This document shows positions 12,939 through 30,161 of a stretch of 30,161 nucleotides of DNA, in pieces. The notes below the pieces were generated by a model. It did not search any database. It had not been told where the DNA came from and saw nothing but the letters and a program-made list of their open reading frames with translations. The stretch comes from Pseudomonadota bacterium (GTDB lineage Bacteria > UBA10199 > 2-02-FULL-44-16 > JAAZCA01), in assembly GCA_043798915.1 (NCBI GenBank), contig JAZDOG010000005.1, forward strand, positions 1 to 30,161, in the 5' to 3' direction. Numbering within the stretch: the first letter of the stretch is position 1; every line of letters starts with the position of its first letter. A program made the position numbers and the translations under genes.

Positions 12939-13382
12939 TCAGGCGGCTCTGTGATGATCGATTACATCGATGGCGAACACAGCGTTATCCCCGCTCATTG
13001 CCGCCACAAAGTCCTGGACCTTCGAGAGGCTCGGAAGGCTCCGCGCCTGTTCGTATTGAGCATAGGCGTGCCTCGTAATCTTAAGACGGCTCGCCACCTG
13101 GCTGAGGCTCAAGCCGTATTTCGCACGCTGCCGTCTCAGAAGAAAGGCCATCAGATATTTGTCGCACTCGTTTTTTTTCGCCCGCAGCACAAACCGGTCG
13201 CCCGTCATCGGAACGACTTCGACCGCGAATCCCTTGCGGTCCACGAGAAGCTCCACGGCTTCCTTGATCATGGAGTAGGCATCCTTCCGCGTCCGGCCCT
13301 GAGTGAAGACATCCAGAGCGGGAACCCCGACAGGCCAATAGCGACCTTCCTTAAAAAGATACCCTTCGAAATTGACGCACAT
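12939..13382 (-). CDS. hicB: HicB-family antitoxin with C-terminal XRE HTH
   Basis: VPALDVFTQGRTRKDAYSMIKEAVEL (HicB) plus LSLSQVASRLKITRHAYAQYE (HTH); SD GGGAGG before ATG 13382. Confidence 0.8.
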   Translation of the reverse strand: MCVNFEGYLFKEGRYWPVGVPALDVFTQGRTRKDAYSMIKEAVELLVDRKGFAVEVVPMTGDRFVLRAKKNECDKYLMAFLLRRQRAKYGLSLSQVASRLKITRHAYAQYEQARSLPSLSKVQDFVAAMSGDNAVFAIDVIDHHRAA

Positions 13383-13401
13383 CCGAACCTCCCTTGCCTT
13401 C

Positions 13402-13593
13402 TTATCCCATTCTCGGACCAGGGTTGAGCGCAGCCGTCCGAAGGATTCGCTTAGCCGTGAACTCGACGACCTCGGCATGCCGCGGAACGGCAAGAAATGT
13501 CTCGCCGTTGGTCCATAGTTCGTGGTTGCCGCCCTGCCGAAGGAACCGCCACCCCAGCTCCGACAATCGCCTGGAAAGCTCACGTCGTTTCAT
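13402..13593 (-). CDS. hicA: HicA-family mRNA interferase toxin
   Basis: 63 aa; MKRRELSRRLSELGW..RQGGNHELW..VPRH..TAKRIL. Confidence 0.88.
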   Translation of the reverse strand: MKRRELSRRLSELGWRFLRQGGNHELWTNGETFLAVPRHAEVVEFTAKRILRTAALNPGPRMG

Positions 13594-13627: not shown

Positions 13628-13660
13628 GAAAATATTCGCGCATATTTATGGACCTCAGCC

Positions 13661-13736
13661 GTGGAATCTTGAGGTTCCAATTTGGCACCTCAAGTTTTCG
13701 AGCTTGATTTAAGCAAGAGTGATGCCAACACCGACG
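13661..13736 (-). repeat. Module A copy 1: 27-bp quasi-palindrome plus sigma-54 motif
   Basis: CTTGAGGTTCCAATTTGGCACCTCAAG (13668-13694); minus-strand TTGGCATCACTCTTGCT (13712-13728). Confidence 0.8.
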
Positions 13737-13789
13737 GCGCGGTTCCCCTCCGCATGTCCTGCAACAGACAACTCCCTGGCTGGAGGTGA

Positions 13790-13925
13790 TATGGTCACGC
13801 CCTGCTCGGTAAACGCGTAAGGCAGAGCTCGTCGAGGACCGCCCCAACTTGAAATCACAAATTGTGATTTCAAGTTGTCGAATTCTTCCTGCGTCAATTG
13901 GAACATAAAGTTATCCGAGAATTTA
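13790..13925 (-). pseudogene. ORF6N-domain gene fragment
   Basis: [34 protein letters not shown] is the ORF6N core; both ends are missing. Confidence 0.8.
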
Positions 13926-14007
13926 GCGTTTAAGCAAGCAACCACATGATATTTCATTGTGTTTGCTGATATCAGAGTGATTATAGCGTTTTGCCTTTAA
14001 GCAAGAA

Positions 14008-14235
14008 TCAGGCCCAGCTTGGGACATAGCTTCGATAGCGGGTGGATGTTTGATTTGGATCGGCCACCTTGGTTTTCCCGAAATCAAGAGCTGAACTGAT
14101 GGTCTGAGAGACAATGACGGATTTCTCCACCATTATGGAAGCGCCCGTGATCCGGAAGTCCTGATGTATTAGCGCATTGGCCACGAGTTCGCGGATAACG
14201 ATTTCGGGCACAAGTTTCACTTCCTTGCGCAGGGA
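14008..14235 (-). pseudogene. Internally deleted remnant of a paralogue of the adjacent AlbA_2/ATP-binding gene
   Basis: PEIVIRELVANALIHQDFRITG...SYVPSWA* matches PEIAVRELVANALIHQDFSISG...SYVPFWA* of 14339-15787. Confidence 0.8.
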
Positions 14236-14338
14236 ACAAGGGGACGAAGGCTGGCTGGTGTCACATATACAACCCATTGATATTTAAGCATATGTCGTCA
14301 TATTTGCCTTAATAACCAGGTTTTGGATGACATAAACT

Positions 14339-15787
14339 TCACGCCCAGAAAGGCACGTAGCTGGCAGCCCGCCGTGTTCCGCTATGAAGTCGAATCAGTT
14401 TGGCGTTGATGGTTTCGTTGATAATTTTGGTGGCGACTGTGTAGCTGGATTCCTTGATGCCCATACGCCTGCGCAAAGAAGCATTGGACATTCGTCTGCC
14501 TGACACAAATTGCAAACACGCGTGTTGATAACATGCACGCACCCTCTCTTCTCGATCCATTTGTTCAAATTGCCGTGGACCATAAAGAACAGCAATTGTG
14601 CTCTCACCTGCAATACGAAAATCCGGCGCGGGCAACTGGAATATTTCGACTTGAAAGATGACCTTGTCGATGCCGCTGCCGCGCTCTTCACAGACATTCA
14701 TCCTGCGCATCAAGGCGGCAAGTGTTTCGTTGCGGGAGCGCGGCGGTTCATCGATGAAACGAAGCGTGTCGATGAGAGGAACGCCCGGATTTGATATTTC
14801 CATCCGATCTTCGAATATTTCCACCATCGGGCCCGCCCCGCTTATGCTGAAGTCCTGATGGATAAGTGCATTGGCGACAAGCTCTCTGACGGCTATCTCC
14901 GGGTACATGCGAACTTCGCTTCGCAGTGCCTGGCCGATCTGTTCGTTATGAGGGAGCTGGTCGTTGATGTAATCGATGGCACCTTCAAAACCAATGGCGT
15001 AGCCCTTGCCCCCCGTCTGTTCCTTGATGGTTTCGACGCGGCTGGCTCCGCGGTACATGATGACGCGAAGGGCCTTTCGGGCCAGCCGATAAAAATTTTT
15101 CAGGTCATCGGCAAAGAGTATTGCGCCTATATTGCTGATGCTGAATTTGTTTCCTGGCGCTGACAGGATAATTTTTTCAGCGAGCAAGCGCTCTATGATG
15201 GATTGGCGATTATCCGGCAAGGGCTGATTCATGAGCCGGAAGTAATTTGGGTAGTCAAGGAGCCGCAATACATCGTCCGATGCCGCGCCATCCAGAGCGA
15301 TGCCTTTTTCAAAAGAGGTGCGTTCAAACATGCGCCAGAGCCCGCGTTCTTTTTCCGGATGATCGTGCAACTTCTTCTTATAGCTTCCGATGCGGATATA
15401 TTCGGTCCCCTTGAAGCGCACTGGCCTGTAAGTGGCGGGCTGAACCTCAAAGAGGACCACAGCTTTATCGTCCACCGTTCCCTCGTAAAATCGGACATCG
15501 ACGCGCGGATCAAGGTGGACGAGAAGCCAATTTTCAAACGTCTCATTCCCTATCTTCAGTTCGCGCGGATGAAAAGCAGTGCCGACGATCTGTTGGGTCT
15601 TGTCATCCACACCCCAGAGAACATAAGCGCACAGTTTTCCATGCAGAGCGGCGGAGTTTGCGAGTGCCGAGACATATTCTCCGATCTCATCGGGGATGGC
15701 CTTATTGTGCTTGAATTCAACCCACTCCGTTTCGCTGGGAAGAGCGACGAGTTCACGTACGAGACTTTGCAACCGGGATGGTTCCAT
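14339..15787 (-). CDS. AlbA_2 (Schlafen-like) domain + RecG-C/HATPase_c_4-like ATP-binding domain + wHTH
   Basis: ETEWVEFK..SALANS..WGVDD; RELVANALIHQD, SNPG, RNETLA, ERGSGIDK; SD AGGAGA before ATG 15787. Confidence 0.8.
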   Translation of the reverse strand: MEPSRLQSLVRELVALPSETEWVEFKHNKAIPDEIGEYVSALANSAALHGKLCAYVLWGVDDKTQQIVGTAFHPRELKIGNETFENWLLVHLDPRVDVRFYEGTVDDKAVVLFEVQPATYRPVRFKGTEYIRIGSYKKKLHDHPEKERGLWRMFERTSFEKGIALDGAASDDVLRLLDYPNYFRLMNQPLPDNRQSIIERLLAEKIILSAPGNKFSISNIGAILFADDLKNFYRLARKALRVIMYRGASRVETIKEQTGGKGYAIGFEGAIDYINDQLPHNEQIGQALRSEVRMYPEIAVRELVANALIHQDFSISGAGPMVEIFEDRMEISNPGVPLIDTLRFIDEPPRSRNETLAALMRRMNVCEERGSGIDKVIFQVEIFQLPAPDFRIAGESTIAVLYGPRQFEQMDREERVRACYQHACLQFVSGRRMSNASLRRRMGIKESSYTVATKIINETINAKLIRLHSGTRRAASYVPFWA

Positions 15788-15798
15788 CAATGAATCTC

Positions 15799-15990
15799 CT
15801 TGAGGTTCCAATCTGGCACCTCACGTTTCCGGGTTTGATTAAAGCAAGAGTGATGCCAACCCAGACGGGGGTCATAGATAATAAATAAATCCAACGATAA
15901 TGAGGAGTTGTACTAAATCATCATTGGCAGGGATTTCCTGTTGGCTGCATCGTTTCGATGCAGCCTGCATTAAAAATGGGCAGCGGGCGG
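15799..15990 (-). promoter_or_regulatory. Module A+B copy 2: sigma-54 promoter with tandem NtrC-like enhancer boxes
   Basis: TTGGCATCACTCTTGCT (15843-15859, minus); TGCATCGTTTCGATGCA (15946-15962); TGCATTAAAAATGGGCA (15966-15982). Confidence 0.75.
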
Positions 15991-16001
15991 TATTGGCTCG
16001 G

Positions 16002-16034
16002 GCCCCGATCATTCTCCAACCCTCAGGTGTCCGC
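16002..16034. repeat. Isolated 33-bp core of repeat C
   Basis: GCCCCGATCATTCTCCAACCCTCAGGTGTCCGC is identical at 17868, 19186 and 20887. Confidence 0.9.
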
Positions 16035-16111
16035 AAAACCGTGCTTTGCGCCGATGTCAGGGCATACCCGCCCGCAGGCTTTCTTCACCCCTGGGGAGAA
16101 CATCCCCTTTT

Positions 16112-17409
16112 TCAGATCAGCTTGCAATATCGAGCCAGGACAACTGAACCAGCAGGTTCATAATAAACGACCGATCCTTCCTCTCTTTTTCTGACAAGGT
16201 GCCTGCGAAGCAGGTCTTTTACGATATTGGCGAAATCCGGTGCTGATGAAAAATTGACCTTTTTATAATCTTTCGGCCTCAAAGGTTGTTCAAGGAGCAT
16301 CAAGAGCAACCTTCTTTGCTTTTTACCCAGCTCATCCACGCAAACCAGGTTCTTTACGACGGGAGTCAACGCGTCAAAAGCCATGTTGTCTTCTACATAT
16401 TCCAATGATGGGTATTTGGTCAGGACCGTGCGCACAATCTGATCACAGACATTGAATAGAAACCTGATTTCGCCGTCGCAGTGCTTATATATTTCGCGAA
16501 TAACACCGTCACCCACCGGCAATAGACACGGTTTTCTGTCGTTTTGGGAAAGTTTGCGCGCTCGTATTTTAAGAATATCCACGGCCTCATTTTCGTTCAG
16601 CGAATCAAGAATTGTTTCAGTTCCTCTGAAATTATCAACAAGTCTCGATCCGTTCGGGTGCTGTCGGATAGCAGCATATGTTCCTTTTAATCCAGCAGCG
16701 TGATCCAAAGAGACTTGATTGAAAATAATTCATCCCGAAGCTCATTCAGTATTTGAACCAGGACATTCAGATCAACAATGTCGAGGTTATTCACAATCAC
16801 GTAAATTCCATTCATCCCCAGATCCGGCAATGCGCTTTCCAAAATTTGACGATCGATCTGGGCCAAATGGCTGATGGAGGCGCTTGTGGGAACGGCCTGA
16901 CTGATCGAACCGCCACCACCAGAAGCACCGAAACCAAACGCCTGGGCGCCGCCAGTGGGCTTGCCCACGGAAACAATCAATTCGTTGATCCATTTGTGTT
17001 GTTTCTCAACTTCTTGAGGCAGACGCTGCTCTTTCTTCTCGTAAATGTGAACCAGAGAATAAATGATGCTCGATGTAATTTTCAGCATCAAGCTTTGCGC
17101 CGTTTCGTCGGAATTGATCTGAAGTTTTTTCGTGTTTGGGATGAGGAGAGTCGGACAGTGAGTAATGTCTTTGAAACACGTTTTCGGATCGTCAAACGAG
17201 GTTACATACTGCATCACGTTGACAAATGTGGTCTTGCCCACGCCGGGATTTCCTGTAACAAGATGGACACAACCCTCCTGACCGGCAATTTGCGCTAGAT
17301 AAGAATGAACATCCTCTCGTCGACCGACGAATTTTTCCAGGCTCTCTTTTGAGGGTTCCAGCGGTTCGGTGAAAAAAGGGTTTTTTGTAAATCCCAGAGC
17401 CTCGTACAT
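16112..17409 (-). pseudogene. P-loop ATPase (AAA/STAND-like) with C-terminal wHTH, split by a 1-bp frameshift near 16690
   Basis: MYEALGFTKNPFF..FVGR..GNPGVGKTT (Walker A), IVNNLD; adding one G to CTG-GAT-TAA joins the two ORFs as WITLLGLKGTY; SD AGGAG before ATG 17409. Confidence 0.7.
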
Positions 17410-17478
17410 AAACAACTCCTTTGTTATCAATGATGTAAGCGATTTTGCAGAAATTTCTGCAAAATCGTTAATGCTTAT

Positions 17479-17680
17479 GTGGAATCTTGAGATTCCGATT
17501 TGGCGCCCCAAGTTCCCATGCTTGATTTAAGCAAGAGCGATGCCAACACCGTCGGGGGTCGTAAAAAAACAAATACCTTCAATAATAATGAAGGATTGCA
17601 TTAGACCGTCTCTGTCAGGGATTTCCGATTGGGTGCAGCATTTCGATGCAGCCTGCATCAAAAATGGGCAGCGGGCAGGT
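17479..17680 (-). promoter_or_regulatory. Module A+B copy 3: sigma-54 promoter with tandem NtrC-like boxes
   Basis: Degenerate palindrome 17486-17512; TTGGCATCGCTCTTGCT (17530-17546, minus); TGCAGCATTTCGATGCA (17634-17650); TGCATCAAAAATGGGCA (17654-17670). Confidence 0.75.
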
Positions 17681-17739
17681 GTTACTCATGGGCGACACTA
17701 TTATGGGCATATCGAGGAGGGTCGACGTGTCCGGAATTT

Positions 17740-18015
17740 GGTTGACCGATGTTAACCGCGCTGCCGGTGCGATTGGCAGCAATGCATTTATGATTTTCAA
17801 AATCTGAATTGCACACACGCAGACCAAGCCGCCACCCATCAGACATGATGGGTGGGGGCTGGATACAGCCCCGATCATTCTCCAACCCTCAGGTGTCCGC
17901 CTATGTCCCCGGATGACACGCTGGGCCCATTTTATCGTTCCGGGCTTTTGGGCGCGCGTTTCCGTTGCAATCCGCCCGGTGCGGGATTATAAATTATGCA
18001 ATTTTTTGAGGGGCC
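17740..18015. repeat. Repeat C+D copy 1 (structured repeat plus plus-strand sigma-70-like promoter)
   Basis: Aligns with 19057-19293 and 20787-21045; TTGCAA-N17-TATAAA at 17965-17993. Confidence 0.9.
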
Positions 18016-19044
18016 ATGAGAAAAACGGCAGACAGGAAAAATCACGGCGAAATTGTCATCTACAAGAGCGGCAAAAACAATGTCGTCCTTGAAGCCTATC
18101 TGCAAAAGGAAAGCGTCTGGCTCAGCCTCGACCAGATGGCCAGGCTCTTTGGCAGGGACAATTCGGTCATATCCCGTCATATCAAAAATGTCTTTGAAGA
18201 GAAGGAGTTAGGCCCCAAGTCAGTTGTTGCAAAATTTGCAACAACTGCATCGGACGGGAAGACTTATCAGGTCGATTACTATAACCTCGATGTCATCATT
18301 TCAGTGGGTTACAGAGTTAAATCTCACAGCGGTGTGCGTTTCCGAATCTGGGCGACAAAGGTCCTCAAAAATCACCTGATCAAAGGTTACACCCTCAACA
18401 AAAAACGTTTGAATGAACTTAAAGGAGATGAACTCAAGACCTTCGAGGATGCCATCACGTTTATGCGCCAGACAATTGCCTCGCGCTCGCTGTCGTCAAA
18501 AGAAGAGAGCGGCCTGCTTCAGGTCATAACTGAATACGCCTACACTTGGATCTTGCTCCAGAAATACGACAAAGATGAGTTGTCGCCGCCCAAGGCGATG
18601 CAGCTATCCGCTTATGCGCTCGATTACCCAGCCGCGTGCGAGGCCATAAATCAGCTTAAAAGTGACTTGGTCGCAAAGAAAGAAGCATCCGATCTCTTTG
18701 GCTGGGAGCGCGGCAGCGGGCTTGAAGGTATTCTTCGTGGCATCTATCAGACGTTTGGCGGGGACGAACTTTATCCAACTATTGAGGAAAAGGCCGCGCA
18801 TCTCTTATACTTCATCATCAAGGACCATCCCTTTGCCGACGGCAACAAGCGGATAGGCTCGCTTCTCTTCATCCTCTTTCTTTCGCGAAACAAGTATCTC
18901 CTGCGCAAGAACGGCGAAAAGAAAATTAACGACAACGCGCTTGTGGCCATCGCCCTGCTTGTTGCAGAGAGCAAGCCGAAGCAAAAAGACGTGATGATAC
19001 GGCTCATCATGCATTTCCTGGCAGGCCGAGCAGGGGTACGGTAA
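18016..19044 (+). CDS. RhuM-family domain fused to Fic/Doc domain
   Basis: ESVWLSLDQMARLF..YNLDVIISVGYRVKS..FRIWAT (RhuM); KDHPFADGNKRIG (Fic/Doc). Confidence 0.9.
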   Translation: MRKTADRKNHGEIVIYKSGKNNVVLEAYLQKESVWLSLDQMARLFGRDNSVISRHIKNVFEEKELGPKSVVAKFATTASDGKTYQVDYYNLDVIISVGYRVKSHSGVRFRIWATKVLKNHLIKGYTLNKKRLNELKGDELKTFEDAITFMRQTIASRSLSSKEESGLLQVITEYAYTWILLQKYDKDELSPPKAMQLSAYALDYPAACEAINQLKSDLVAKKEASDLFGWERGSGLEGILRGIYQTFGGDELYPTIEEKAAHLLYFIIKDHPFADGNKRIGSLLFILFLSRNKYLLRKNGEKKINDNALVAIALLVAESKPKQKDVMIRLIMHFLAGRAGVR

Positions 19045-19056
19045 GCCTTGTAGTAT

Positions 19057-19293
19057 GGTTAATATGTGTTAACCGGCGCTGCCGGTGCGGTTGGCAGCAA
19101 TGCATTTATGATTCTCAAAATCTGGATAGCACGTACGCAGACCAGGCCGCCACCCATCCGACATGATGGGTGAGGGCTGGTTACAGCCCCGATCATTCTC
19201 CAACCCTCAGGTGTCCGCCCGTGTCCCCGGATGACACGATGGGCGCATATTTTATCGTTCCGGCCCTTTGGACTCGCGTTTCCGTTGCAATCC
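19057..19293. repeat. Repeat C copy 2
   Basis: Closely similar to 17740-17973; lies between two convergent Fic genes. Confidence 0.9.
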
Positions 19294-19302
19294 ACGTGTC
19301 TG

Positions 19303-20454
19303 TTATTTGTCATCCGTAAAAATGTCGGTGTATTTTTTGTAGATATAGGACTGGCCATATTTCTTATCCTTATCTTTCGGGGAGAGAATGCCCATATCTA
19401 TAAAACGATTGATGACGGTTTGTGCGCCGGCGCGTGTAAAATGGGTCCACTTTTGCACAAGCGCTACATTGACGACCGGCTGTCCATATAGTCTGGGCAA
19501 CAAGAGCGCGGCGCTCTCCGCGGACCGTTTCCCAAGCTTTTGCAATTTTGCCATGTCTTCTTCACGCAAAACAGTGATCTTGCCCACAATGTCTATGGCT
19601 TCATTGGCAACCTCGATGACACCCTCGAGAAAAAAAGCAACCCAGTCCGACACCATGCCGTGCTTCTGATAACCGAGCAGCTTTTCATAATACAACTCCT
19701 GGTGTTTTTTGAAAAAAGAGGACAGGAACAGAACCGGCTTTTCAAGAAATCCCACTTTCCATAAATAGAAAGTGGTCAACATCCTGCCGGTTCTTCCATT
19801 TCCATCGAGAAATGGATGAATGGTTTCAAACTGAGCATGGATGAGCGCTGCCTTGATCAGCGTCAGCGTCGAATCATCCGTATGCATGAAGCGCTCAAGG
19901 TCATGCAATGCCCTGTTCATCTCCTCAACAGGCGGAGGAACAAAGCGGGCATTATCCGGGCGGGTACCCCCAATCCAGTTTTGACTTTTGCGAAACTCTC
20001 CAGGATCAGAAAAGTGGGTTGCTCGCGCTTGGTCCATCAGCTTTGCATGTAACTCGCGCACAAAGCGCAGAGAAATCGGGAATCCATCGTCAACCATCCG
20101 CTTCATCCCGTAATTCAGCGCCTTGATGTAATGCAAAATATCATCCACATCTTTGGGGATATTGGCGTTTACTTTTGCCTCAGCTTCGATCGCATTGATC
20201 ATCGTGGCCTGTGTTCCCTCAATCTGGCTTGAGGAGGCCGCGTCTTTTCGGAGATACATCAGGAGAAAAAAATCGGCATCGGGTAACAACTTCGTAATTC
20301 CATCCAGTTTGCCCAGCAGCCTGGTGGCCTGATCGGCCTTCTTTAAAAGATGAGCATCCCAATCAAACCCCTCTTTTGGAGGAAAAGCGTGAGGAATAAA
20401 GGCTTTAAAGCCTTGAATTTGCTCTATATTTTTACCGAGATCTATGTGTTTCAT
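19303..20454 (-). CDS. Fic family protein (N-terminal inhibitory motif, C-terminal HTH)
   Basis: SSQIEG inhibitory motif; PGEFRKSQNWIG; HPFLDGNGRTGR catalytic motif. Confidence 0.92.
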   Translation of the reverse strand: MKHIDLGKNIEQIQGFKAFIPHAFPPKEGFDWDAHLLKKADQATRLLGKLDGITKLLPDADFFLLMYLRKDAASSSQIEGTQATMINAIEAEAKVNANIPKDVDDILHYIKALNYGMKRMVDDGFPISLRFVRELHAKLMDQARATHFSDPGEFRKSQNWIGGTRPDNARFVPPPVEEMNRALHDLERFMHTDDSTLTLIKAALIHAQFETIHPFLDGNGRTGRMLTTFYLWKVGFLEKPVLFLSSFFKKHQELYYEKLLGYQKHGMVSDWVAFFLEGVIEVANEAIDIVGKITVLREEDMAKLQKLGKRSAESAALLLPRLYGQPVVNVALVQKWTHFTRAGAQTVINRFIDMGILSPKDKDKKYGQSYIYKKYTDIFTDDK

Positions 20455-20463
20455 AGTTTGAAT

Positions 20464-20535
20464 CTATCTTTTTAAAGATGTAAACAAAGTATATATGTTT
20501 GTATACATACAGTCAAGGGATGGATACAAAGATAG
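20464..20535 (-). promoter_or_regulatory. Sigma-70 promoter of the Fic gene with operator-like repeats
   Basis: Minus strand TTGACT-N17-TATACT (20516-20488); TGTAAACA/TGTATACA/TGGATACA repeats; CTATCTTT...AAAGATAG inverted repeat. Confidence 0.7.
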
Positions 20536-20546
20536 GTGACTCCAGA

Positions 20547-20765
20547 CTAGCTTCGGCGGCGCCTCTTGCGACGAAGGATGCGCGCGCTTTCGCGCTTGTC
20601 CATCCGCATCTTCTCCTGCGCGATCGCTGCCGGCCGGATCGCGTAGCTGCCGCCGATCATCACGGAGGCCATGCGCCCCTGTCTTATCTTCTTGAAGACG
20701 GCAATCCTGCTAATGCCCAGCATCTTCGCCGCTTCGGTGGTCGAAAAGAATTGCTTCATGGCCAT
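20547..20765 (-). CDS. Excisionase-like (HTH_17/MerR-type) DNA-binding protein
   Basis: FFSTTEAAKMLGISRIAVFKKIRQGRM..IGGSYAI; start at 20765 or 20759. Confidence 0.8.
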   Translation of the reverse strand: MAMKQFFSTTEAAKMLGISRIAVFKKIRQGRMASVMIGGSYAIRPAAIAQEKMRMDKRESARILRRKRRRRS

Positions 20766-20786
20766 AGCAATAGCCCCGTGCAGTTT

Positions 20787-21045
20787 GGTTAACATATGTT
20801 AACCGCGCTGAATAAGTCAACGCTGGACAGCACACACGCAGCTCAGGCTGCCACCGATCAGACATGATGGGTGAGGGCTGGTTACAGCCCCGATCATTCT
20901 CCAACCCTCAGGTGTCCGCCCGTGTCCCCGGATGACACGATGGGCGCCTATTTGAAGTAGTGGAGAGGGTCAGGGTGAGGGGGCTGTCTTTCCATTGCAA
21001 TCCGCCCGGGGCGGGATTACAAATTATGCAATTTTTTGAGGGGCG
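20787..21045. repeat. Repeat C+D copy 3
   Basis: Perfect palindrome GGTTAACATATGTTAACC, shared hairpins and 33-bp core, REP fragment at 20962-20981, D element starting at TTGCAA 20995. Confidence 0.9.
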
Positions 21046-21071
21046 GGTTTTCATTTTCCAAAGGAGCTTCC

Positions 21072-22667
21072 ATGATTGGTCATCCATTAAAAATCAGCGA
21101 TATCATGTCTGAAATGAGCAGGGGCGGTATTCGCATACCTGAAATACAAAGAGATTACGTTTGGCGGCGCAGCCAGATCGCCAAACTTCTGGATTCGATC
21201 TACAACAGATATCCCGTCGGTTCGATACTTTTATGGGATACGGCAGCGGACGATATAAAGATCCGCGAGATGGAAACAAGCATTGGCCAGGGCAAGACTT
21301 ATGATTTTATTCCAAAGATTATCCTGGACGGCCAGCAACGCATAACGTCTCTTGGAAAAGTCTTCGATTCTGCTACGGTCAAGGGCGATCGCATCCTGTT
21401 CAATGTACTGGACGAAGTTTTTGAACCATATTCCCCGCGTCATTCCTCCGATGCGCACTGGATTGACACGACCGGCCTCCTCACCAACGAATTTACAGAG
21501 CTGGATATCCTGGATCGCCTGATGGACTCAGGCGTTGTGGACAAAGGTAATCGTGAGCTGAAAAACACACTTCATGATCGGCTCAAGAAACTGTCATCTA
21601 TACGCGATTTTCAATTCCCCGTCGAAATCGTGAAAGAAGACGACCTTGAGATCATCACAGAGATATTCATCAGGGTCAATTCGGCTGGGACAAGGCTGCG
21701 CGAGGCAGAACTGGCGTTGGCGCGGCTCGCGTGGAAACTCCCCGGCAGCATCATAGGGCCATTCAGAGAAATGGAAGAACTCTGCGATGATCGGGGTTTT
21801 GACCTCGACGTGCGTTTTTTTATGAGATCTCTGGTCTCCGTGGCCACGCGCCAGAGCCGTTTTAAAGACCTCAAGGCATTTTGGTTGAGGCCGGCCAAAG
21901 ACATCGAAGATGCCTGGAAGAAAACCGAGAGGGGTCTCAAACTCGCCCTCGACTTTGTGGAAGGCAATGTTGGCATATCAGGTTCGGCGTTTTTGCCCTC
22001 TCAGGTGAGCCTGATCCCGCCATGCCTCATATTTGCGGTACGCGACCGTTTGAGCGGCGAGGAGGAGCGGATGCTCCGCCGCTGGCTGCTTATAGCTAAT
22101 GCTTTTTCAAGGTACGTAGGGGCTACGGAATCGACGCTCAACAGGGATCTTTCGATCCTGGGAAATGATTGCAGCAATGTGCAGGGACTTTATGAAACGA
22201 CTGTCAAAGACCTCAGGGCCGAGCCTCGCATTACGCCAGACGACCTCGATCGATCTGGCACGAATAATCCGTTCTTCTTCCTGAGCTATCTTGCGGTGAT
22301 GGGCCGCGATGCTGTCGACTGGTTTAAGGGTATCAAGATACGCCGCGAATCATTCTCAGAGGATCAAAATATAGAGTACCATCATATATTCCCGAAAAAA
22401 CTGCTCAACGACAAGGGAGTCGACAGATATATGCGCGACGAGATGGCAAATATAGCTTTCCTGTCGCAGAAGGCGAATCGCAAGATATTGAAGAGGCCGC
22501 CTTCTGATTATCTTGCCGAAATAGCTGAAAACGATCCGGCGCGGCTTGAAGCGCAATTTATACCAATGGATCGGACTCTTTGGGCCATGGAAAGGTTTGA
22601 CGACTTCCTCAAAGAGCGACGCAAGTTGCTATCAGCGGCTATGAATGAGGTTATTCACGGCGGGTAA
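21072..22667 (+). CDS. GmrSD-like DUF262 + HNH (DUF1524-like) putative modification-dependent restriction nuclease
   Basis: IPEIQRDYVW, ILDGQQRITSL, IFIRVNSAG; C-terminal IEYHHIFPK..MANIAFLSQKANRKI; SD AAGGAG before ATG 21072. Confidence 0.85.
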   Translation: MIGHPLKISDIMSEMSRGGIRIPEIQRDYVWRRSQIAKLLDSIYNRYPVGSILLWDTAADDIKIREMETSIGQGKTYDFIPKIILDGQQRITSLGKVFDSATVKGDRILFNVLDEVFEPYSPRHSSDAHWIDTTGLLTNEFTELDILDRLMDSGVVDKGNRELKNTLHDRLKKLSSIRDFQFPVEIVKEDDLEIITEIFIRVNSAGTRLREAELALARLAWKLPGSIIGPFREMEELCDDRGFDLDVRFFMRSLVSVATRQSRFKDLKAFWLRPAKDIEDAWKKTERGLKLALDFVEGNVGISGSAFLPSQVSLIPPCLIFAVRDRLSGEEERMLRRWLLIANAFSRYVGATESTLNRDLSILGNDCSNVQGLYETTVKDLRAEPRITPDDLDRSGTNNPFFFLSYLAVMGRDAVDWFKGIKIRRESFSEDQNIEYHHIFPKKLLNDKGVDRYMRDEMANIAFLSQKANRKILKRPPSDYLAEIAENDPARLEAQFIPMDRTLWAMERFDDFLKERRKLLSAAMNEVIHGG

Positions 22668-22763
22668 ATAGGGGCTCCGTGCTTTTTTGCTCCGTGACCG
22701 GTGGTTCAGACGTAGCTGCGATGGCACGAGAACTCATGATCGATCTGAGCCCGCGAAAATAAG

Positions 22764-23044
22764 ATGGAAAAAGAGATAACCAATCGCGCTATGGCCTTCA
22801 TCTTCGCCAACACCTGGATCTTTGCCAAGACCTATGCACAGACTGCGCCGTCGTGAAGGACAAGTTGACAAACGAGGAGATGAAACGCGAATTCGAGTGG
22901 TTCGTGATGCTTATTCGAGAGCATGGATATCAGGCAGAGTTCTAGGGCAAGGTGCATACCTATCTGAACATCGACGGCAAGAAATACTGGACCATGGGCG
23001 CGCCTCTGGAGGAAACGATCATCATCAACCGGGCGGATCTATAA
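22764..23044 (+). pseudogene. Disrupted small conserved hypothetical gene
   Basis: MEKEIT..WIFAKTYAQTAP, then a frameshift into VVKDKL..FVMLIREHGYQAEF*GKVHTYLNIDGKKYWTMGAPLEETIIINRADL*. Confidence 0.6.
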
Positions 23045-23069
23045 GACCGCCCCAGGGGGCGTTACGAGT

Positions 23070-24569
23070 TTGAAGAAGCTCTCCAAATCCAAGTATATCC
23101 TCGGCCTGCAATGCCCCAAGGCCTTATGGTTGAGCATCCATAGGCCGGAACTTCAGGCCCCGCTGGATGAGGGGACTAAGCGCATCTTCGAAATGGGTCA
23201 TCTTGTGGGCAAATACGCCCAGGCGCGTTTCCCCGGAGGGGTGCTGATCGACGAGGATCACATGCACCTCGGAGAGGCCATCCGCTCCACCGAGAAGGCT
23301 GTCGCCGCGGGCGCGACCGCGATCTTTGAGGCTACCGCGGCCTTCGGCGGCGCCCTCTGCCGCGTGGACATCCTTTTTCGGCGGGGAAAAAGGAAACGAG
23401 AATGGGACCTCTTTGAGGTCAAGTCGTCGACCGGCGTGAAAAATTACCACCTGGATGATGTTTCGTTCCAGCGGCACTGTTTTGAAAACGCCGGATACGA
23501 AATCCGCCGGACGCTCCTCATGCACGTAAACAACAAGTACGTCCGGGACGGCGCCATTGAACCAAAACGATTGCTCCACACCGAGGATGTCACGGAATTG
23601 GTTGTCGAGCGAATGGAGGGGATGGAAGATCGGATCGAAAACCTCCTGGCGGCCATCAACCAGCGGAAGAGGCCGGAGATCGCTCCAGGCGTTCAGTGCG
23701 CGTCGCCCTTTGTCTGTCTATTCTTTGAACTCTGCAACAAACGCTTCCCCTACGATATCTACGAGCTTCCCTGCGGCGGCCAGCGAGTGCCGGAGCTGGA
23801 GGACATGAACATCCGGTATCTCAAGCACATCCCGGACGATTTTCCGCTTTCGGACAGGCAACGCCGCAGCGTCCAAAGCGCCAGGAGCCGCAAGGCGGTC
23901 GTCGATACAGAGGGGATACGCGCGTTTCTTGAAACGCTCGAGTATCCGCTCTATTTCTTCGACTTTGAGACTGTTTCGTGCGCCGTGCCGCCGTTCAACC
24001 ATTCACGGCCGTACGAGTTCATCCCTTTCCAGTTTTCGCTTCACGTTCAGAAGCGAAAGGACGGCCCCGTCGAGCATCACGCCTTTCTGCACGAAAAGAA
24101 AAGCGATCCCCGAAAATCGTTGATAAGGAGCATGCTCAAGCTCTTGGGGAAAAAGGGCAGCATCGTCGCCTACAACATGTCCTTTGAGAAAACGGTCATC
24201 GGTTATTTGATCGACGACTTCCCTGAACACTCAAGGGCCCTCAAGGCCCTCCTTCGGCGGTTCAAGGATCTCAAGACGCCGTTCTCCGGCGGGCATTACG
24301 TCCACCGGGATTTTCACGGCAGCGCGTCGCTGAAGGCCGTGTTGCCGGTGCTGGCGCCGTCCCTGTCCTATGATAAGCTCGACATACGGGACGGCGGCAC
24401 GGCGAGCTTCGCATACGAAAGGTGGATAATGGGCAAGATGGCGGACAGGGAGTGGAGGGAGACGTATCGGGCCCTGCTCAAGTATTGCGAGCTCGATACG
24501 CTGGCGATGGTGGAGATCCTGAAACGATTGTACTCAGAAAAAGAAAAAGGGGACGCTTGCCGGTGTTAA
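23070..24569 (+). CDS. DUF2779-domain protein (RecB-like nuclease N-terminus + RNase H-like domain)
   Basis: LSKSKYILGLQCPKALWL, VDIL..EVKSST..DVSFQ, YFFDFET..IPFQFSLH, SLKAVLP, YCELDTLAM; TTG start. Confidence 0.82.
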   Translation: MKKLSKSKYILGLQCPKALWLSIHRPELQAPLDEGTKRIFEMGHLVGKYAQARFPGGVLIDEDHMHLGEAIRSTEKAVAAGATAIFEATAAFGGALCRVDILFRRGKRKREWDLFEVKSSTGVKNYHLDDVSFQRHCFENAGYEIRRTLLMHVNNKYVRDGAIEPKRLLHTEDVTELVVERMEGMEDRIENLLAAINQRKRPEIAPGVQCASPFVCLFFELCNKRFPYDIYELPCGGQRVPELEDMNIRYLKHIPDDFPLSDRQRRSVQSARSRKAVVDTEGIRAFLETLEYPLYFFDFETVSCAVPPFNHSRPYEFIPFQFSLHVQKRKDGPVEHHAFLHEKKSDPRKSLIRSMLKLLGKKGSIVAYNMSFEKTVIGYLIDDFPEHSRALKALLRRFKDLKTPFSGGHYVHRDFHGSASLKAVLPVLAPSLSYDKLDIRDGGTASFAYERWIMGKMADREWRETYRALLKYCELDTLAMVEILKRLYSEKEKGDACRC

Positions 24570-24714
24570 GTGGCGGAAAGCATTAAGGTCCATGAGTGTT
24601 AAAACCGCCGCTATTTTCAAGACGAATAGCCGCAGCGAGCTGGCGCGGTTCCAGGGATGAGGCTCCCCTGCGAAAAATTGCACAACATGTCAGCCGAACA
24701 AGATTCTATCCCCG

Positions 24715-25542
24715 TCAATCATTCCCCAGAATGATCGGCAGGCCGTCCTTGCCGGACCCCACCACTATGATCTTGCTGTTCTCGCTCTTGGCAAGCTCGC
24801 GCGTCGCCTCGATACCGCGGAGTTTCAGCACGGCTGGCGAGAGACCCAGGTTGACGGTCGAGTTGAAGTCGGTGATTCCCCTGGCCTCGATCCGCTTGCG
24901 CTCGGCCTCCTGCGTCTCGCGATCGAGGACGAACTTCATCTGCTCGGCCTGCTGCTCGGCCTCGAGCTTTTTCTCGATGGCGGTCGAGAGGATGGCGGGA
25001 AGCTTGACCGCCCTCAGGAGGACGCTTTCGACCAGCACCCCCCTGGCCTCCACCATCGGCTTCAGCTGATCGTACATCTGCGAGGCCAGGAGCTCGCGCT
25101 CCGCCGTGTAGAGGGCCTTGGCGTCATAGCCAGCAGTCACGCCCCGGACGACGGACCTGAGCTGGGGGTTGACGATGATGTCCTGGTAGCTCATCCCGAT
25201 GGTCTTATAGACCTGTGGCGCGAGCGCAGGATTCAAGCTGATGAGGACGGAGATATCCAGGTTGACGGTCAATCCCTCCCGCGAGGGGACGGTCGCTTCC
25301 TCCGTGATCTGCTGCGTCCGAACGCTCATCTCGTGGATCGTCAGGAACGGATTCACCGCATGGATCCCCGCCTGGAGCGGGGTCTCGTAAACGTTTCCGA
25401 AGAACTCCATGATCCCCACGTTGCCGGCAGGGATGATGACGACGCACTTGACGAGGGCAAGCAGCGCCACCAATGTCCCTATCACGATCCATTTGCTCTT
25501 CCGATACTTTGCGAACAGCGCGCTGAATTCTTCGTAAGCCAT
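24715..25542 (-). CDS. SPFH / prohibitin family membrane protein
   Basis: N-terminal TM segment, IPAGNVG, AIEKKLEAEQQAEQM, EAERKRIEARGI; start MAYEEF with SD AGGAG. Confidence 0.9.
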   Translation of the reverse strand: MAYEEFSALFAKYRKSKWIVIGTLVALLALVKCVVIIPAGNVGIMEFFGNVYETPLQAGIHAVNPFLTIHEMSVRTQQITEEATVPSREGLTVNLDISVLISLNPALAPQVYKTIGMSYQDIIVNPQLRSVVRGVTAGYDAKALYTAERELLASQMYDQLKPMVEARGVLVESVLLRAVKLPAILSTAIEKKLEAEQQAEQMKFVLDRETQEAERKRIEARGITDFNSTVNLGLSPAVLKLRGIEATRELAKSENSKIIVVGSGKDGLPIILGND

Positions 25543-25637
25543 ATCGTCTCTCCTTTTCGGGGAAGCTGCAGTGCCCCTGTGAAACCGGACACCGTTGATC
25601 CGTAAGCTACATAACTCTGGCTGAGGTGTCCAATCAA

Positions 25638-26360
25638 TTACAGAGGCAGGTCGCCAATTAACCTGTGCGTCGGAATCGCCCCGACGAGGGTTTCGAAAAA
25701 GCGGGGGACCCTGGCGTGGAAGTTGAAGGTTCTTCCGTTGACGGGATGGCGGAAGGAGATCGAAAGGGCATGCAGCGCCAGCTGCCGGTGGCGCGCGTCC
25801 TTGCCTCCGTATTTCCGATCCCCCACCACCGGGTGTCCCCGCCCGGCCAGGTGCACCCGGATCTGATGCTTGCGGCCGGTCAGGAGATCGATCTCCAGGA
25901 GGCTGTATTCCCCGGTCTCCTTGAGGACCCTGTAGACGGTGTGGGCCAGCTTCCCTTTGGCGGTATCCGGCGTGGAATAGACGACGTGGGCGCTGTTTTC
26001 CACAAGATACGTGGAGATGGTCTCCTGCGGTTTTGGCATCTTCCCGTGGACAATTGTCAGGTACTTTTTGCGCGTTTCCTCCCAATTATCCTGCAGCGCG
26101 GCCCGCGCTTCGGCCGTCTTGGCAAAGATGAGGATGCCGGAGGTGTCCTGATCGAGTCGATGGACGATGAAGACGTGGTCCCTCGACCGGACGTTTCCCT
26201 TGCGGAGGTAATCGGTGAGGATGAAGTACGCCGTTCGCTGCTTCTCCTTCTCCGTGCCGATCGTCAACAGGCCCGCGGGTTTGTTGACGATGATGATGGC
26301 CCGATCCTCGTGAAGGATCTCCAGACCCTGCAAATGGTGTCGATTTGTTTTTGGATGCAT
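25638..26360 (-). CDS. RluA-family pseudouridine synthase
   Basis: VNKPAGLL, VHRLDQDTSG, TGRKHQIRVH, GDRKYG, LALHA. Confidence 0.93.
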   Translation of the reverse strand: MHPKTNRHHLQGLEILHEDRAIIIVNKPAGLLTIGTEKEKQRTAYFILTDYLRKGNVRSRDHVFIVHRLDQDTSGILIFAKTAEARAALQDNWEETRKKYLTIVHGKMPKPQETISTYLVENSAHVVYSTPDTAKGKLAHTVYRVLKETGEYSLLEIDLLTGRKHQIRVHLAGRGHPVVGDRKYGGKDARHRQLALHALSISFRHPVNGRTFNFHARVPRFFETLVGAIPTHRLIGDLPL

Positions 26361-26414
26361 TCTGGGCAGTATTTTTCCTACTACACGAATGCTATTGGAC
26401 CGTAAAATAAAATA

Positions 26415-26792
26415 TCATTGATTTAGCGAGGTTCGACGATTTGCTCCGTGATCGGGTGTTCCCGGTTGACGAGGCAAAAGTGCCACAGGCTGTGGCACAA
26501 TTGAGTCGGAGTCGAGGTATTCCCGGAAAAAAGCAATCATCCGTTTCAGATTCCGCTCCGAAAAGCCCTTCTCTTCAGGGAATTCATTATGCAGATCGCG
26601 GGCGAGACGAGGAATCACGGCCGCTCCCCAACCCTCAACGGACTGGCGTTCATGAAGCAGGCGGCCGATGCCCCAATAGAGCACGATCATCTCTTTGTTT
26701 GCCGCAAACACTGCCCTCTGTTGGGCCGAGCGAATGCGCTCTTTGATTTCGCCGAGGAGCGACGCATACGCAGCAGGAATGATTCTCTTCAT
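26415..26792 (-). pseudogene. Truncated DUF1016/YhcG N-terminal domain
   Basis: IKERIRSAQQRA..NKEMIVLYWGIG..GWGAAVIPRLARDL..GFSERNLKRM; family-like sequence ends just after IVPQPVALLP; nuclease domain absent. Confidence 0.8.
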
Positions 26793-26804
26793 GCCCCATA
26801 ACGT

Positions 26805-27060
26805 AGCAAGAGACGTGCCAAAGCCATTTAAGGCGAGATCATTTGGAGTGCTATGAAAATATAGCGTTTTTTCAGAAGATGGACGTGATAACTTTTTGAA
26901 GGGGTGCTGCGTTTCGATGCAGACTGCATCGAAAATGGGCAGTTCGCTTCGGGAGGGCCGTTTTTTGTGGGGCTGGGAAAAGCTTGCAAACCGGCTCAAA
27001 GCGAGGCGTTGCACTACCGCCCCCGGCGGCGCATAAATTGTGAAATTTTTGAGGCGCGGG
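26805..27060. promoter_or_regulatory. Diverged copy of the sigma-54 + tandem box + D module
   Basis: TTGGCACGTCTCTTGCT (26805-26821, minus); TGCTGCGTTTCGATGCA (26905-26921); TGCATCGAAAATGGGCA (26925-26941); D-like TTGCAC..ATAAATTGTGAAATTTTTGAGG (~27009-27054). Confidence 0.7.
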
Positions 27061-27523
27061 GTTGGCTTTTATTTATCAGATTTCGGCTTTGTTAGGCCAG
27101 GCAGTTGCAAGATGAGAATCGTCCCCCTTTTCATCGATCAAATGCTCGATCCATTCTGTGTCCCCAAAACTCCCCTGCCGTCCCCCGTGCTTGAGCATTT
27201 TCCATCCCCCGCTGCTTTCATCATGTATCAGACGATCACCTTCTAATATGCATCAATACTACATCTCCACCTGTTTCACGAGCTAAAATATGCGTCAAAC
27301 ATTACACGAAAAAAATCAACAGCTTCTCATCGGTGTCATTATTTTGACGTATAGTTGGTTTTTGTTCAAATTGAGAAACACGTCATCTACGTAATCACCT
27401 AAAATGTATCGTATTTTTCAAAGGATGGACTGGCATCATTTTTGCACATTTTTGACTTCGTAGATTGAATGCTCGTTCTATGAGGAATTTTTACTACTGA
27501 GTTTTATATTGCAGGCACGAAAA

Positions 27524-30046: not shown

Positions 30047-30161
30047 AAAAAGCAATCGTGAAAAATACTCATAATTCCGGGGACACTTATTTCACGAATT
30101 GAGTCTCGCGTCCTTTGAAAATCCCCCAAAAATCCAGCGTGTGCAATTTTTCGCAGGGGAG

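Follow-up and report, generated by a model that had tools for sequence, protein, structure and literature searches.

Integron cassette arrays carry unrelated gene cassettes separated by attC sites, and a cluster of such sites that lacks an integrase is known as a CALIN. In sigma-54 regulons of the NtrC type, a TGCA-rich dyad lies about 100 nt ahead of a GG-N10-GC promoter, and the activators have the REC-AAA-HTH_8 architecture. Promoter reuse has reportedly been described by Matus-Garcia, Nijveen and van Passel in 2012 under the name of putative mobile promoters (PMPs). PMPs are defined as sequences with at least 80% identity over at least 50 nt upstream of non-paralogous genes of the same genome, have no known mobile element attached, and spread in a manner that was left open (PMC3575422). 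For T4-type phages, Arbiol et al. 2010 (PMC2839356) describe promoter-early stem-loop (PeSL) cassettes, in which small conserved promoter units with a terminator stem-loop lie between non-essential variable genes; recombination was proposed there to shuffle the modules without a dedicated recombinase, and recombination products (mini-circles) were physically shown. Here, we analyze a 30,161-nt stretch of DNA (the window), which is the entire contig C47 of a metagenome-assembled genome of a Pseudomonadota bacterium (2.34 Mb in 105 contigs, estimated to be 97% complete with 3.3% contamination). A composite non-coding module with the parts A, B, C and D recurs in it between unrelated, mostly defence-type genes; the parts are numbered below by copy (A1, C3), and contigs are always named as such.

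On balance, we consider it probable that these modules are reused, and probably co-regulated, promoter linkers that express acquired defence cassettes. The repeats would then be paralogous copies of promoter-bearing intergenic linkers serving the horizontally acquired genes of an island. Leftward cassettes would carry A-B, that is, a sigma-54 promoter, a 5'-terminal leader hairpin and the B dyad approximately 90–110 nt upstream, and would stay silent until an activator that binds B is switched on. Rightward cassettes would carry D, with a sigma-70-type promoter, a GC dyad in the spacer as the likely operator and a ribosome-binding site, D being preceded by C within the island. The complete module at 17479–18015 would be the divergent control region where the leftward and rightward sets meet, and the remaining copies its partial derivatives. 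The linkers would spread, and cassettes would be swapped, by homologous recombination between linkers together with illegitimate joins, without a dedicated enzyme. Promoter firing, control by one activator and one repressor, and spread by general recombination are all inferred from the sequence.

Six copies of the module were recovered by a repeat search and sensitive self-BLASTN, all direct (+ strand) and collinear in the order A-B-C-D, with identities of 78–95% and E-values from 5e-17 to 9e-71; the copies listed in a first-pass annotation of the window were all found again, with their coordinates, orientation and order. The complete module, A-B-x-C-D, begins on the minus strand with A3 (17479–17567), which contains a putative sigma-54 promoter (17545–17530) and a leader hairpin, and B3 (17568–17683), with a predicted enhancer dyad 112 nt upstream of the −24 element. 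Segment x (17684–17738) contains CATGGGCGACACTAT, a motif that recurs on contig C31 following B and on contig C72 ahead of D. On the plus strand follow C3 (17739–17958), which is non-coding and hairpin-rich and has a decayed palindrome at its start and a 33-nt core at 17868–17900, and D3 (17959–18014), which comprises a putative sigma-70-type promoter (TTGCAA, a 17-nt spacer with a dyad, TATAAA) and a ribosome-binding site and ends at the start codon of the RhuM-Fic gene.

The first copy consists of A1 alone (13661–13737, minus strand), with a putative sigma-54 promoter (TGGCATCACTCTTGCT, 13727–13712) and a leader hairpin; it is 87% identical to 17479–17555 over 77 nt (E 5e-17). Copy 2 contains A2 (15799–15876, minus strand; putative promoter at 15858–15843 and leader hairpin), B2 (15880–15994, minus strand), whose predicted enhancer dyad (TGCAGGCTGCATCGAAACGATGCAG on the promoter strand) lies 111 nt upstream of the −24 element, and an isolated C core (16002–16034, plus strand) that is 100% identical to the cores of the three full C copies. 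Its A-B part, 15799–15994, aligns with 17486–17683 at 78% identity over 198 nt (E 4e-38). Copy 4 is C4 with the left stub of D4 (19056–19293, plus strand; 89% identity over 238 nt, E 9e-71), broken after TTGCAATCC. Copy 5 consists of C5 (20784–20952, plus strand), with a perfect 18-bp palindrome, GGTTAACATATGTTAACC, at its start (20787–20804) and its core at 20887–20919, and D5 (20989–21049, plus strand), a putative sigma-70-type promoter that is 95% identical to D3 over 56 nt; C and D align together over 222 nt (20823–21044, 82% identity, E 4e-50). C5 lacks approximately 28 nt that C3 and C4 contain, and a piece of a G-rich motif, GAGAGGGTCAGGGTGAGGG, is inserted between C5 and D5 (20953–20988). 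The same motif occurs in a palindromic repeat at 1731–1828, which has 42-nt arms that are 81% complementary and belongs to a family abundant in the genome (more than 40 BLAST matches on other contigs). Copy 6 (26805–27064) is made of a putative sigma-54 promoter, TGGCACGTCTCTTGCT (26805–26820, minus strand), B6 (26885–26950, minus strand; B match 26893–26942, 84% over 50 nt), with a predicted enhancer dyad 108 nt upstream of the −24 element, and the diverged D6 (26951–27064, plus strand).

The genes next to the copies differ each time. All-against-all BLASTP of 425 stop-to-stop open reading frames (ORFs) between 12.9 and 30.2 kb returned module-derived pairs and a single true remnant (14011–14283 against the AlbA_2 protein). 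The absence of cargo-to-cargo pairs excludes simple tandem duplication, as the first-pass annotation had argued, and means that the cargo genes are mutually unrelated. The locus thereby resembles PMPs, with highly similar sequences upstream of non-paralogous genes in one genome: A1 and A3 share 87% identity over 77 nt at about −68 to −150 from the start codons, pairs of D copies likewise reach at least 80% over at least 50 nt, and the genes behind them belong to different Pfam families. In contrast to PMPs, the island linkers pair two promoter classes back to back (sigma-54 with enhancer, and sigma-70 type, both predicted), are stacked as an array in one defence island and are tied to low-GC cargo of defence and toxin-antitoxin type; PMPs are defined gene by gene, with no link to sigma-54 or defence islands in PMC3575422. 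Three features are particular to the present case: the back-to-back arrangement of a putative sigma-54/enhancer unit and a sigma-70-type unit, a stack of partial copies that flank a single complete divergent module to its left and right, and a predicted B regulon composed mostly of defence, toxin and mobile-element genes.

We read A as a putative sigma-54 promoter plus a leader hairpin, directed leftward. Each A copy opens on the minus strand with TGGCAT-N5-TTGCT, and the sigma-54 pattern TGGNAN6TTGCW has five matches in the window compared with 0.43 expected, a number that none of 100 shuffles reached. Four of the five are those of the three A copies and copy 6, each facing a leftward gene; genome-wide, the strict motif has 41 matches. 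The fifth window match, TGGCATCATTTTTGCA (27431–27446, plus strand), has no B-like dyad upstream and lies approximately 80 nt upstream of an 845-aa methyltransferase gene in a stretch of 40% GC. Approximately 7 nt past the expected transcription start, A contains an 8-bp hairpin (CTTGAGGT ... ACCTCAAG). In A3, the minus-strand RNA would keep two of these pairs as G-U where RNA of the opposite strand would have C-A mismatches, which fits a leader hairpin transcribed leftward. The predicted leftward transcripts would read into the HTH_31 (XRE-type) regulator gene downstream of A1 (12939–13583, Pfam), the AlbA_2 (Schlafen-type) and HATPase_c_4 gene (14339–15787, Pfam), whose ribosome-binding site lies at the left edge of A2, a two-gene cassette (16112–17409) of an AAA_16 ATPase (16687–17409) and a 198-aa protein with no family match (16112–16708), and the DUF1016 (PDC-S02) gene (26415–26792), represented by its N-terminal domain alone and starting approximately 13 nt from the sigma-54 motif; all are on the minus strand.

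B contains a 20-nt dyad that reads CTGCATCGAAACG(C/A)(A/T)GCAC on the promoter strand. A search of the whole genome with an nhmmer profile of B identified five strong sites (three in the window, C31:16075 and C57:39637) and three weaker ones (C92:29800, C17:5791 and C31:24871). All eight lie 60–112 nt upstream of a sigma-54 motif in constant relative orientation, and the five strong sites, at 111, 112, 108, 87 and 88 nt, form two distance classes about two helical turns apart. In copy 6 and on contig C31, the alignable remainder is the −24/−12 element and the B dyad alone, a pattern that points to functional constraint. The genome encodes rpoN (one PF04552 match, on contig C76) and six sigma-54 activators with PF00158, four of them REC-AAA-HTH_8 and two FHA-AAA-HTH_8 proteins. 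B is therefore best read as the putative enhancer of a regulon, a site for one of these six enhancer-binding proteins. The genes at B-paired sigma-54 motifs encode the AlbA_2/HATPase_c_4 protein, the AAA_16 ATPase with the 198-aa protein, the DUF1016 fragment, a Bro-N protein, an RHS protein, an ORF6N protein beside an AbiEii fragment, a ComEA-like HHH_3 protein and a Y1 transposase-like protein. The last of these, a gene of the Y1 (IS200-like) transposase family within C31:24085–24895, stands right behind a sigma-54 motif with a B-like dyad, and a candidate mobility enzyme may thus share enhancer control with the defence cassettes.

The arrangement resembles NtrC-type regulons in its GG-N10-GC promoter, its TGCA-rich dyad about 100 nt upstream and the REC-AAA-HTH_8 activators of the genome: the −24 GG and −12 GC are exactly spaced, rpoN and six activators are present, and the upstream site falls within approximately 80–150 nt (87–112 nt for the strong copies). 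It differs in its predicted targets, which are mostly of defence and mobile-element type (AlbA_2/Schlafen-type, AAA_16, DUF1016, Bro-N, ORF6N, RHS and Y1 transposase-like) and not metabolic or stress operons. A full-text literature search found no paper dealing with sigma-54 control of defence islands or with promoter linkers located in them. The similarity of the copies could in principle reflect selection on the shared sites of a regulator and polymerase without any copying of DNA, and B is indeed paired with the sigma-54 motif at three promoters that are otherwise unalignable (on contigs C92 and C17 and at C31:24812), just as in ordinary regulon members. We regard this explanation as very unlikely; it is disfavoured already by alignment length. 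The island copies are 78–95% identical over 77–238 nt, including the B-to-promoter spacer and the leader, which the other members lack, and the D family aligns over 75–105 nt at 76–87% identity. Copying is preferred to convergence because this identity runs through spacers that are absent from the other regulon members.

D, which we read as a putative sigma-70-type promoter (TTGCAC, 17 nt, TATAAA, with a GC dyad within the spacer), has 12 copies on nine contigs, as identified by BLASTN and nhmmer against the genome, with alignments spanning 75–105 nt at 76–87% identity. The −35 hexamer is TTGCAC, TTGCGC or TTGCAA in 11 of the 12 copies, the spacer is 17 nt long in 11, and a TATAAA-like −10 hexamer is present in all 12. 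Every spacer contains a GC-rich dyad whose arms vary among the copies yet remain complementary. D6 is a generic genome-wide member (TTGCAC, 17 nt, CATAAA) with no recognisable gene after it, and matches the copies on contigs C61, C31 and C12 at 81–86% over 71–105 nt. Within the window, the genes predicted to be driven by D are those for RhuM-Fic/Doc (18016–19044, plus strand; PADLOC PDC-S23, E 5e-131) and a GmrSD_N-domain nuclease-like protein (21072–22667, plus strand; PADLOC HEC-05). Outside it, D precedes unrelated genes for MNT-HEPN, a 1102-aa Type ISP restriction enzyme, a KAP NTPase, RhuM, a Sel1/PDZ/aspartyl-protease protein, a 130-aa protein of unrecognised family and a Bro-N fragment. 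The GC content of the nine genes that follow D outside the window is 42–52%, compared with a genome median of 59% per kb, and several D-cassette insertions come after core genes (MiaB-like, SBP_bac_5 and URO-D). The first-pass annotation had proposed a bidirectional promoter/recombination platform, and its two-way promoter region ahead of unrelated defence-type cargo is borne out: the sigma-54 motif is present in four of four window copies with B 87–112 nt upstream, and the sigma-70-type geometry of D in 12 of 12. The genome-wide sets to which B and D belong had been missed.

Contig C12 holds a decayed copy of the D-RhuM/Fic unit, in three pieces with 75–86% identity (22325–22589). A second D begins 10 nt past the decayed RhuM/Fic stop codon and is followed by a 21-nt motif, J, so that this stretch (22325–22732) has the order of the window island, but without C or the SoFic segment. 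In the window, motif J (TTTGCTCCGTGACCGGTGGTT) lies just after the stop codon of the GmrSD-like gene (22686–22706, plus strand); it is exact at C12:22708, and a 16-nt version (TTGCTCCGTGAYCGG) has four matches in the genome. To judge from this order and these identities, the stretch on contig C12 shows that promoter-plus-gene units were copied between loci. On contig C31 and in copy 6, the sigma-54 motif, B and D form one compact divergent region without C, because of which C looks like an addition specific to copies 3–5.

In common with the PeSL cassettes, the D family places a predicted sigma-70-like promoter within a short conserved unit that stands among variable genes, here ahead of accessory genes. 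Unlike the phage elements described in PMC2839356, the island linkers are chromosomal in a cellular genome, and one of their two promoter types is predicted to depend on sigma-54. Terminator-like hairpins are found at 17908–17925 and 16093–16107, not in every copy, and the dyad in the D spacer has no T-run.

Several repeats of other kinds accompany these loci. A 2.7-kb islet on contig C31 (14456–17300), with a Bro-N gene, a sigma-54/B/D module, the 130-aa gene, a second D and a Bro-N fragment, is bounded by inverted repeats of approximately 190 nt that are 92–93% identical. Members of this repeat family also bracket a C5-methyltransferase restriction-modification cassette on contig C11 and are present as single copies on contigs C12, C90 and C72; neither inverted-repeat pair (C31, C11) encloses a transposase. 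A dispersed non-coding family, E, at 24592–24701 is 95% identical to C37:20264–20374, with further copies on contig C94, at C61:8389–8477 (directly behind the MNT-HEPN pair that follows D) and at C72:28270 (immediately ahead of a D copy). To judge from these positions, family E may mark the 3' side of cassettes.

A less eventful history would be that of ragged duplication debris, in which local segmental duplications of one divergent region were followed by deletions and gene replacement, leaving non-functional relics. Such a history would account for the partial copies (A alone; A-B plus core), for the truncation of D4 between converging genes, for the apparently neutral C substitutions outside the 33-nt core in every frame and for the gene remnants at the junctions. 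These remnants, which the first-pass annotation had also recognised, are an ORF6N (PDC-S05) fragment that lacks its N-terminal third (13712–13996, minus strand; Pfam and PADLOC), a HATPase_c_4 paralogue remnant (14011–14283, minus strand; 70% identical over 37 aa to the AlbA_2 protein by BLASTP) and the N-terminal domain of DUF1016 standing alone. We nevertheless consider debris unlikely: the −24/−12 element and the B dyad are kept where the intervening sequence has diverged beyond alignment, the D hexamers and their 17-nt spacing are kept in 11 of 12 copies, D copies precede intact unrelated genes on nine contigs, and no paralogy links the flanking genes.

A, B and D have ragged edges. A1 is joined at 13733–13737, through a 5-nt GACGG microhomology, to an unrelated fragment (13725–13784, plus strand) of a dispersed repeat family, F, with at least 11 copies on other contigs, which cuts A1 off. 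For D, similarity starts at varying points upstream of the −35 hexamer and stops between approximately +10 and +35, and its edges are counted as ragged for this reason. Together with the decayed paralogous copies, the ragged edges and the microhomology junction would fit general recombination better than a site-specific system. The resemblance to integrons and CALINs lies in unrelated cassettes split by similar repeats in the same orientation with no integrase nearby. The island repeats differ in having neither attC structure nor a core pair, in lying upstream of genes with putative promoters, in serving genes that read in both directions and in their ragged edges; we conclude that the linkers are not integron cassettes. 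A scan for the paired attC core motifs, RYYYAAC ... GTTRRRY, at 40–130 nt spacing found none in the window, compared with 3.6 ± 2.7 expected from 200 shuffles. Pfam scans of 54 window ORFs gave no recombinase or transposase domain and no PF00589 (IntI-type integrase) match, as anticipated in the first-pass annotation, whose further notion of a recombination platform that captures and shuffles cargo is not supported, in view of the ragged edges, the 5-nt microhomology junction and the absence of attC pairs and of a recombinase from the window.

Known insertion sequence (IS) ends are not in evidence either: in a test for ends of insertion sequences or miniature inverted-repeat transposable elements, no inverted repeat pairs joined the module ends, and no transposase domain was found in the window. 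Xer/dif (pdif-type) modules are flanked by 28-bp dif-like sites (11-6-11) in alternating orientation. They were rejected as a model, the only palindrome here having 9-nt arms without a central spacer and the copies being all direct. Mobilisation of C by a Y1 transposase (IS200/IS605-like) was rejected as well, the bases to the left of the three C copies having no common target. A search for a co-occurring recombinase or Y1 transposase, empty within the window, was positive elsewhere in the genome, with two Xer-size tyrosine recombinases (312–313 aa), one large serine recombinase and three Y1 transposase-like genes, all on other contigs.

C is confined to the island, where a profile search of the genome found three copies and the isolated core. 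The 33-nt core is exact in all four. Among C3, C4 and C5 the invariant run extends to 38 nt, with 17 variable columns of 127, a length reached in 2632 of 100,000 column shuffles. Beside B2, the exact core adjoins an A-B part that is only 78% identical to its counterpart, as would follow from either constraint or recent gene-conversion copying. Compared with shuffled sequences, folding is somewhat more stable on the plus strand (z −2.98; −1.83 on the minus strand); C holds several hairpins, and the core is a C/U-rich unpaired stretch between them. A protein gene was rejected, since synonymous-to-non-synonymous counts are neutral in six frames and the only frame to stay open through C3 and C4 is interrupted in C5 and corresponds to unrelated sequence in copy 2. 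A small RNA or type I toxin-antitoxin locus was considered too, but the three near-identical copies yield no usable covariation and no promoter is evident. An Rfam search gave no family at the gathering threshold or at E-values up to 1.

The left edge of C lies at the 18-bp palindrome, two 9-nt arms without a central spacer, and here the possibility of a site-specific cassette system has to be considered, in which C-D-gene units move in and out at the palindrome or at the 33-nt core by means of a recombinase encoded elsewhere. The candidate enzyme would be the single large serine recombinase, on contig C103, with the HTH_17 protein as directionality factor. In all three copies the left C edge varies by no more than 2 nt, and the DNA beyond it is unrelated; of the two palindrome halves, the one facing the module is better preserved, as in hybrid att sites; the core is exact in four of four copies whereas its flanks differ by 7–22%; the copies are all direct repeats; and the HTH_17 gene (20547–20765, minus strand; likely start 20765 or 20759) matches an excisionase family of DNA-binding proteins (TIGR01764, E 3.6e-8). 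Nevertheless, the palindrome has three matches in the genome, all of them C copies; the window encodes no recombinase and has no attC motifs; and the A, B and D edges are ragged. The palindrome is perfect in C5 alone, where it is located 22–40 nt ahead of the HTH_17 start codon, overlapping a predicted minus-strand promoter, the usual place of an autoregulatory operator, and it is decayed in C3 and C4, which lack an HTH_17 gene. We read the palindrome as the putative HTH_17 operator, with a recombination site as the alternative, and regard a site-specific system as improbable.

An assembly artefact or a chimera of the metagenome-assembled genome could also produce repeats of this kind: the assembly has 105 contigs and an estimated 3.3% contamination, and its contig ends fall in repeats. 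At the right end, the last 141 nt (30021–30161) match the inverted end of contig C37 at 100% identity; two family E copies lie beside this overlap, where contigs C47 and C37 probably join. The left end, 1–371, is 98% identical to C46:1779–2149. However, the module copies differ from one another by 5–22%, and are therefore not collapsed or duplicated reads; the longest exact stretch common to any two of them is 87 nt (at most 38 nt for the remaining pairs), which is shorter than the 141-nt contig overlap that we take as the final word size of the assembler. An artefact, named as a possible refutation in the first-pass annotation, is thus extremely unlikely. The SPFH/Band_7 gene at 24725–25560 recurs at 91% identity on contig C48, as a paralogue or through the presence of a second strain in the bin; as a possible strain variant of the window, contig C48 was set aside, being only 2.5 kb long with unrelated flanks.

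The reading of the modules as reused promoter linkers is preferred, and the genomic setting of the array would suit an acquired island. The first 12.9 kb carry core genes with 58–68% GC (purD, a Sua5-family gene, dksA, glnE and addA/addB). The GC content drops to 43–57% over 13.5–22.8 kb, a stretch of defence-type genes according to Pfam and PADLOC, which includes, besides the genes described above, a Fic_N-Fic gene (19303–20454, minus strand; PADLOC SoFic, E 7.5e-110). The hicAB pair named in the first-pass annotation is not among them, as Pfam scans gave no HicA or HicB match. To the right, core-like genes resume (DUF2779, SPFH and pseudouridine synthase), and a second accessory stretch with approximately 40% GC begins at 26.4 kb with the DUF1016 N-terminal fragment and the 845-aa methyltransferase gene. 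The window contains no tRNA or tmRNA, and hence no tRNA-type attachment site. Between the GmrSD-like gene and DUF2779, two short open frames with no family match (22763–23070) resemble a single gene split by a stop or frameshift. Near-perfect palindromes are found at 13845–13877 (33 nt; recurring at C31:14662–14690) and at 17440–17467 (28 nt), the latter in the private leader of the AAA_16 gene.

Searches beyond this genome were negative. The 537-nt module is absent from 60 relatives, and the B 30-mer pattern from 92 other genomes of the class, which are the whole phylum as sampled. The 146-nt D copy had only four matches of 22–25 nt among the same 92 genomes (three genomes, E 2e-4 to 7e-3), which we treat as chance. 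Exact 24–27-base core and B patterns were not found in genome, metagenome and viral contig collections, nor was the D pattern in viral contigs, the only collection searched with it, and BLASTN of the modules against plasmid and phage collections returned nothing. The AddB proteins of the nearest family members are only 28–49% identical, and these relatives are consequently too distant for a synteny comparison.

Several observations weigh against the linker interpretation. Every promoter and enhancer call is a consensus match. A1, which stands before the HTH_31 gene, has lost its B enhancer, and C4 lies between converging genes, with D4 truncated 9 nt before the SoFic stop codon, so that this copy cannot be a working promoter region. 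The linker reading does not account for the core, which is invariant in all four copies. The left C edge, constant within 2 nt in all three copies at a palindrome beside an excisionase-family gene, fits site-specific recombination better than general recombination. Finally, no second strain or relative carries the modules, and recombination between linkers has never been directly observed.

A bolder proposal, drawn by analogy with the PeSL mini-circles, is that the island is an integrase-free cassette system of this small-genome, uncultured bacterium, in which each linker would double as an expression plug and a homology handle, defence cassettes would be swapped or looped out as circles, and a single enhancer-binding protein would keep at least eight sigma-54 promoters of defence, toxin and mobile-element genes silent until a signal arrives; the core and the palindrome could then be exchange or control sites. 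We hold this to be possible, if rather doubtful. If true, it would amount to an inducible, sigma-54-gated immune regulon.

Defence islands turn over fast, and how acquired defence genes gain safely regulated promoters is poorly understood. The present case suggests that a genome may keep a few ready-made control units and reuse them for incoming genes; one such unit belongs to the sigma-54/enhancer type, which is tightly off by default. Should control by sigma-54 prove real, it would indicate that defence genes whose products are costly or toxic (Schlafen-type, Fic, nuclease and RHS) are expressed in response to a signal. If the linkers also mediate the exchange of cassettes, they would be a chromosomal counterpart of the phage PeSL system.

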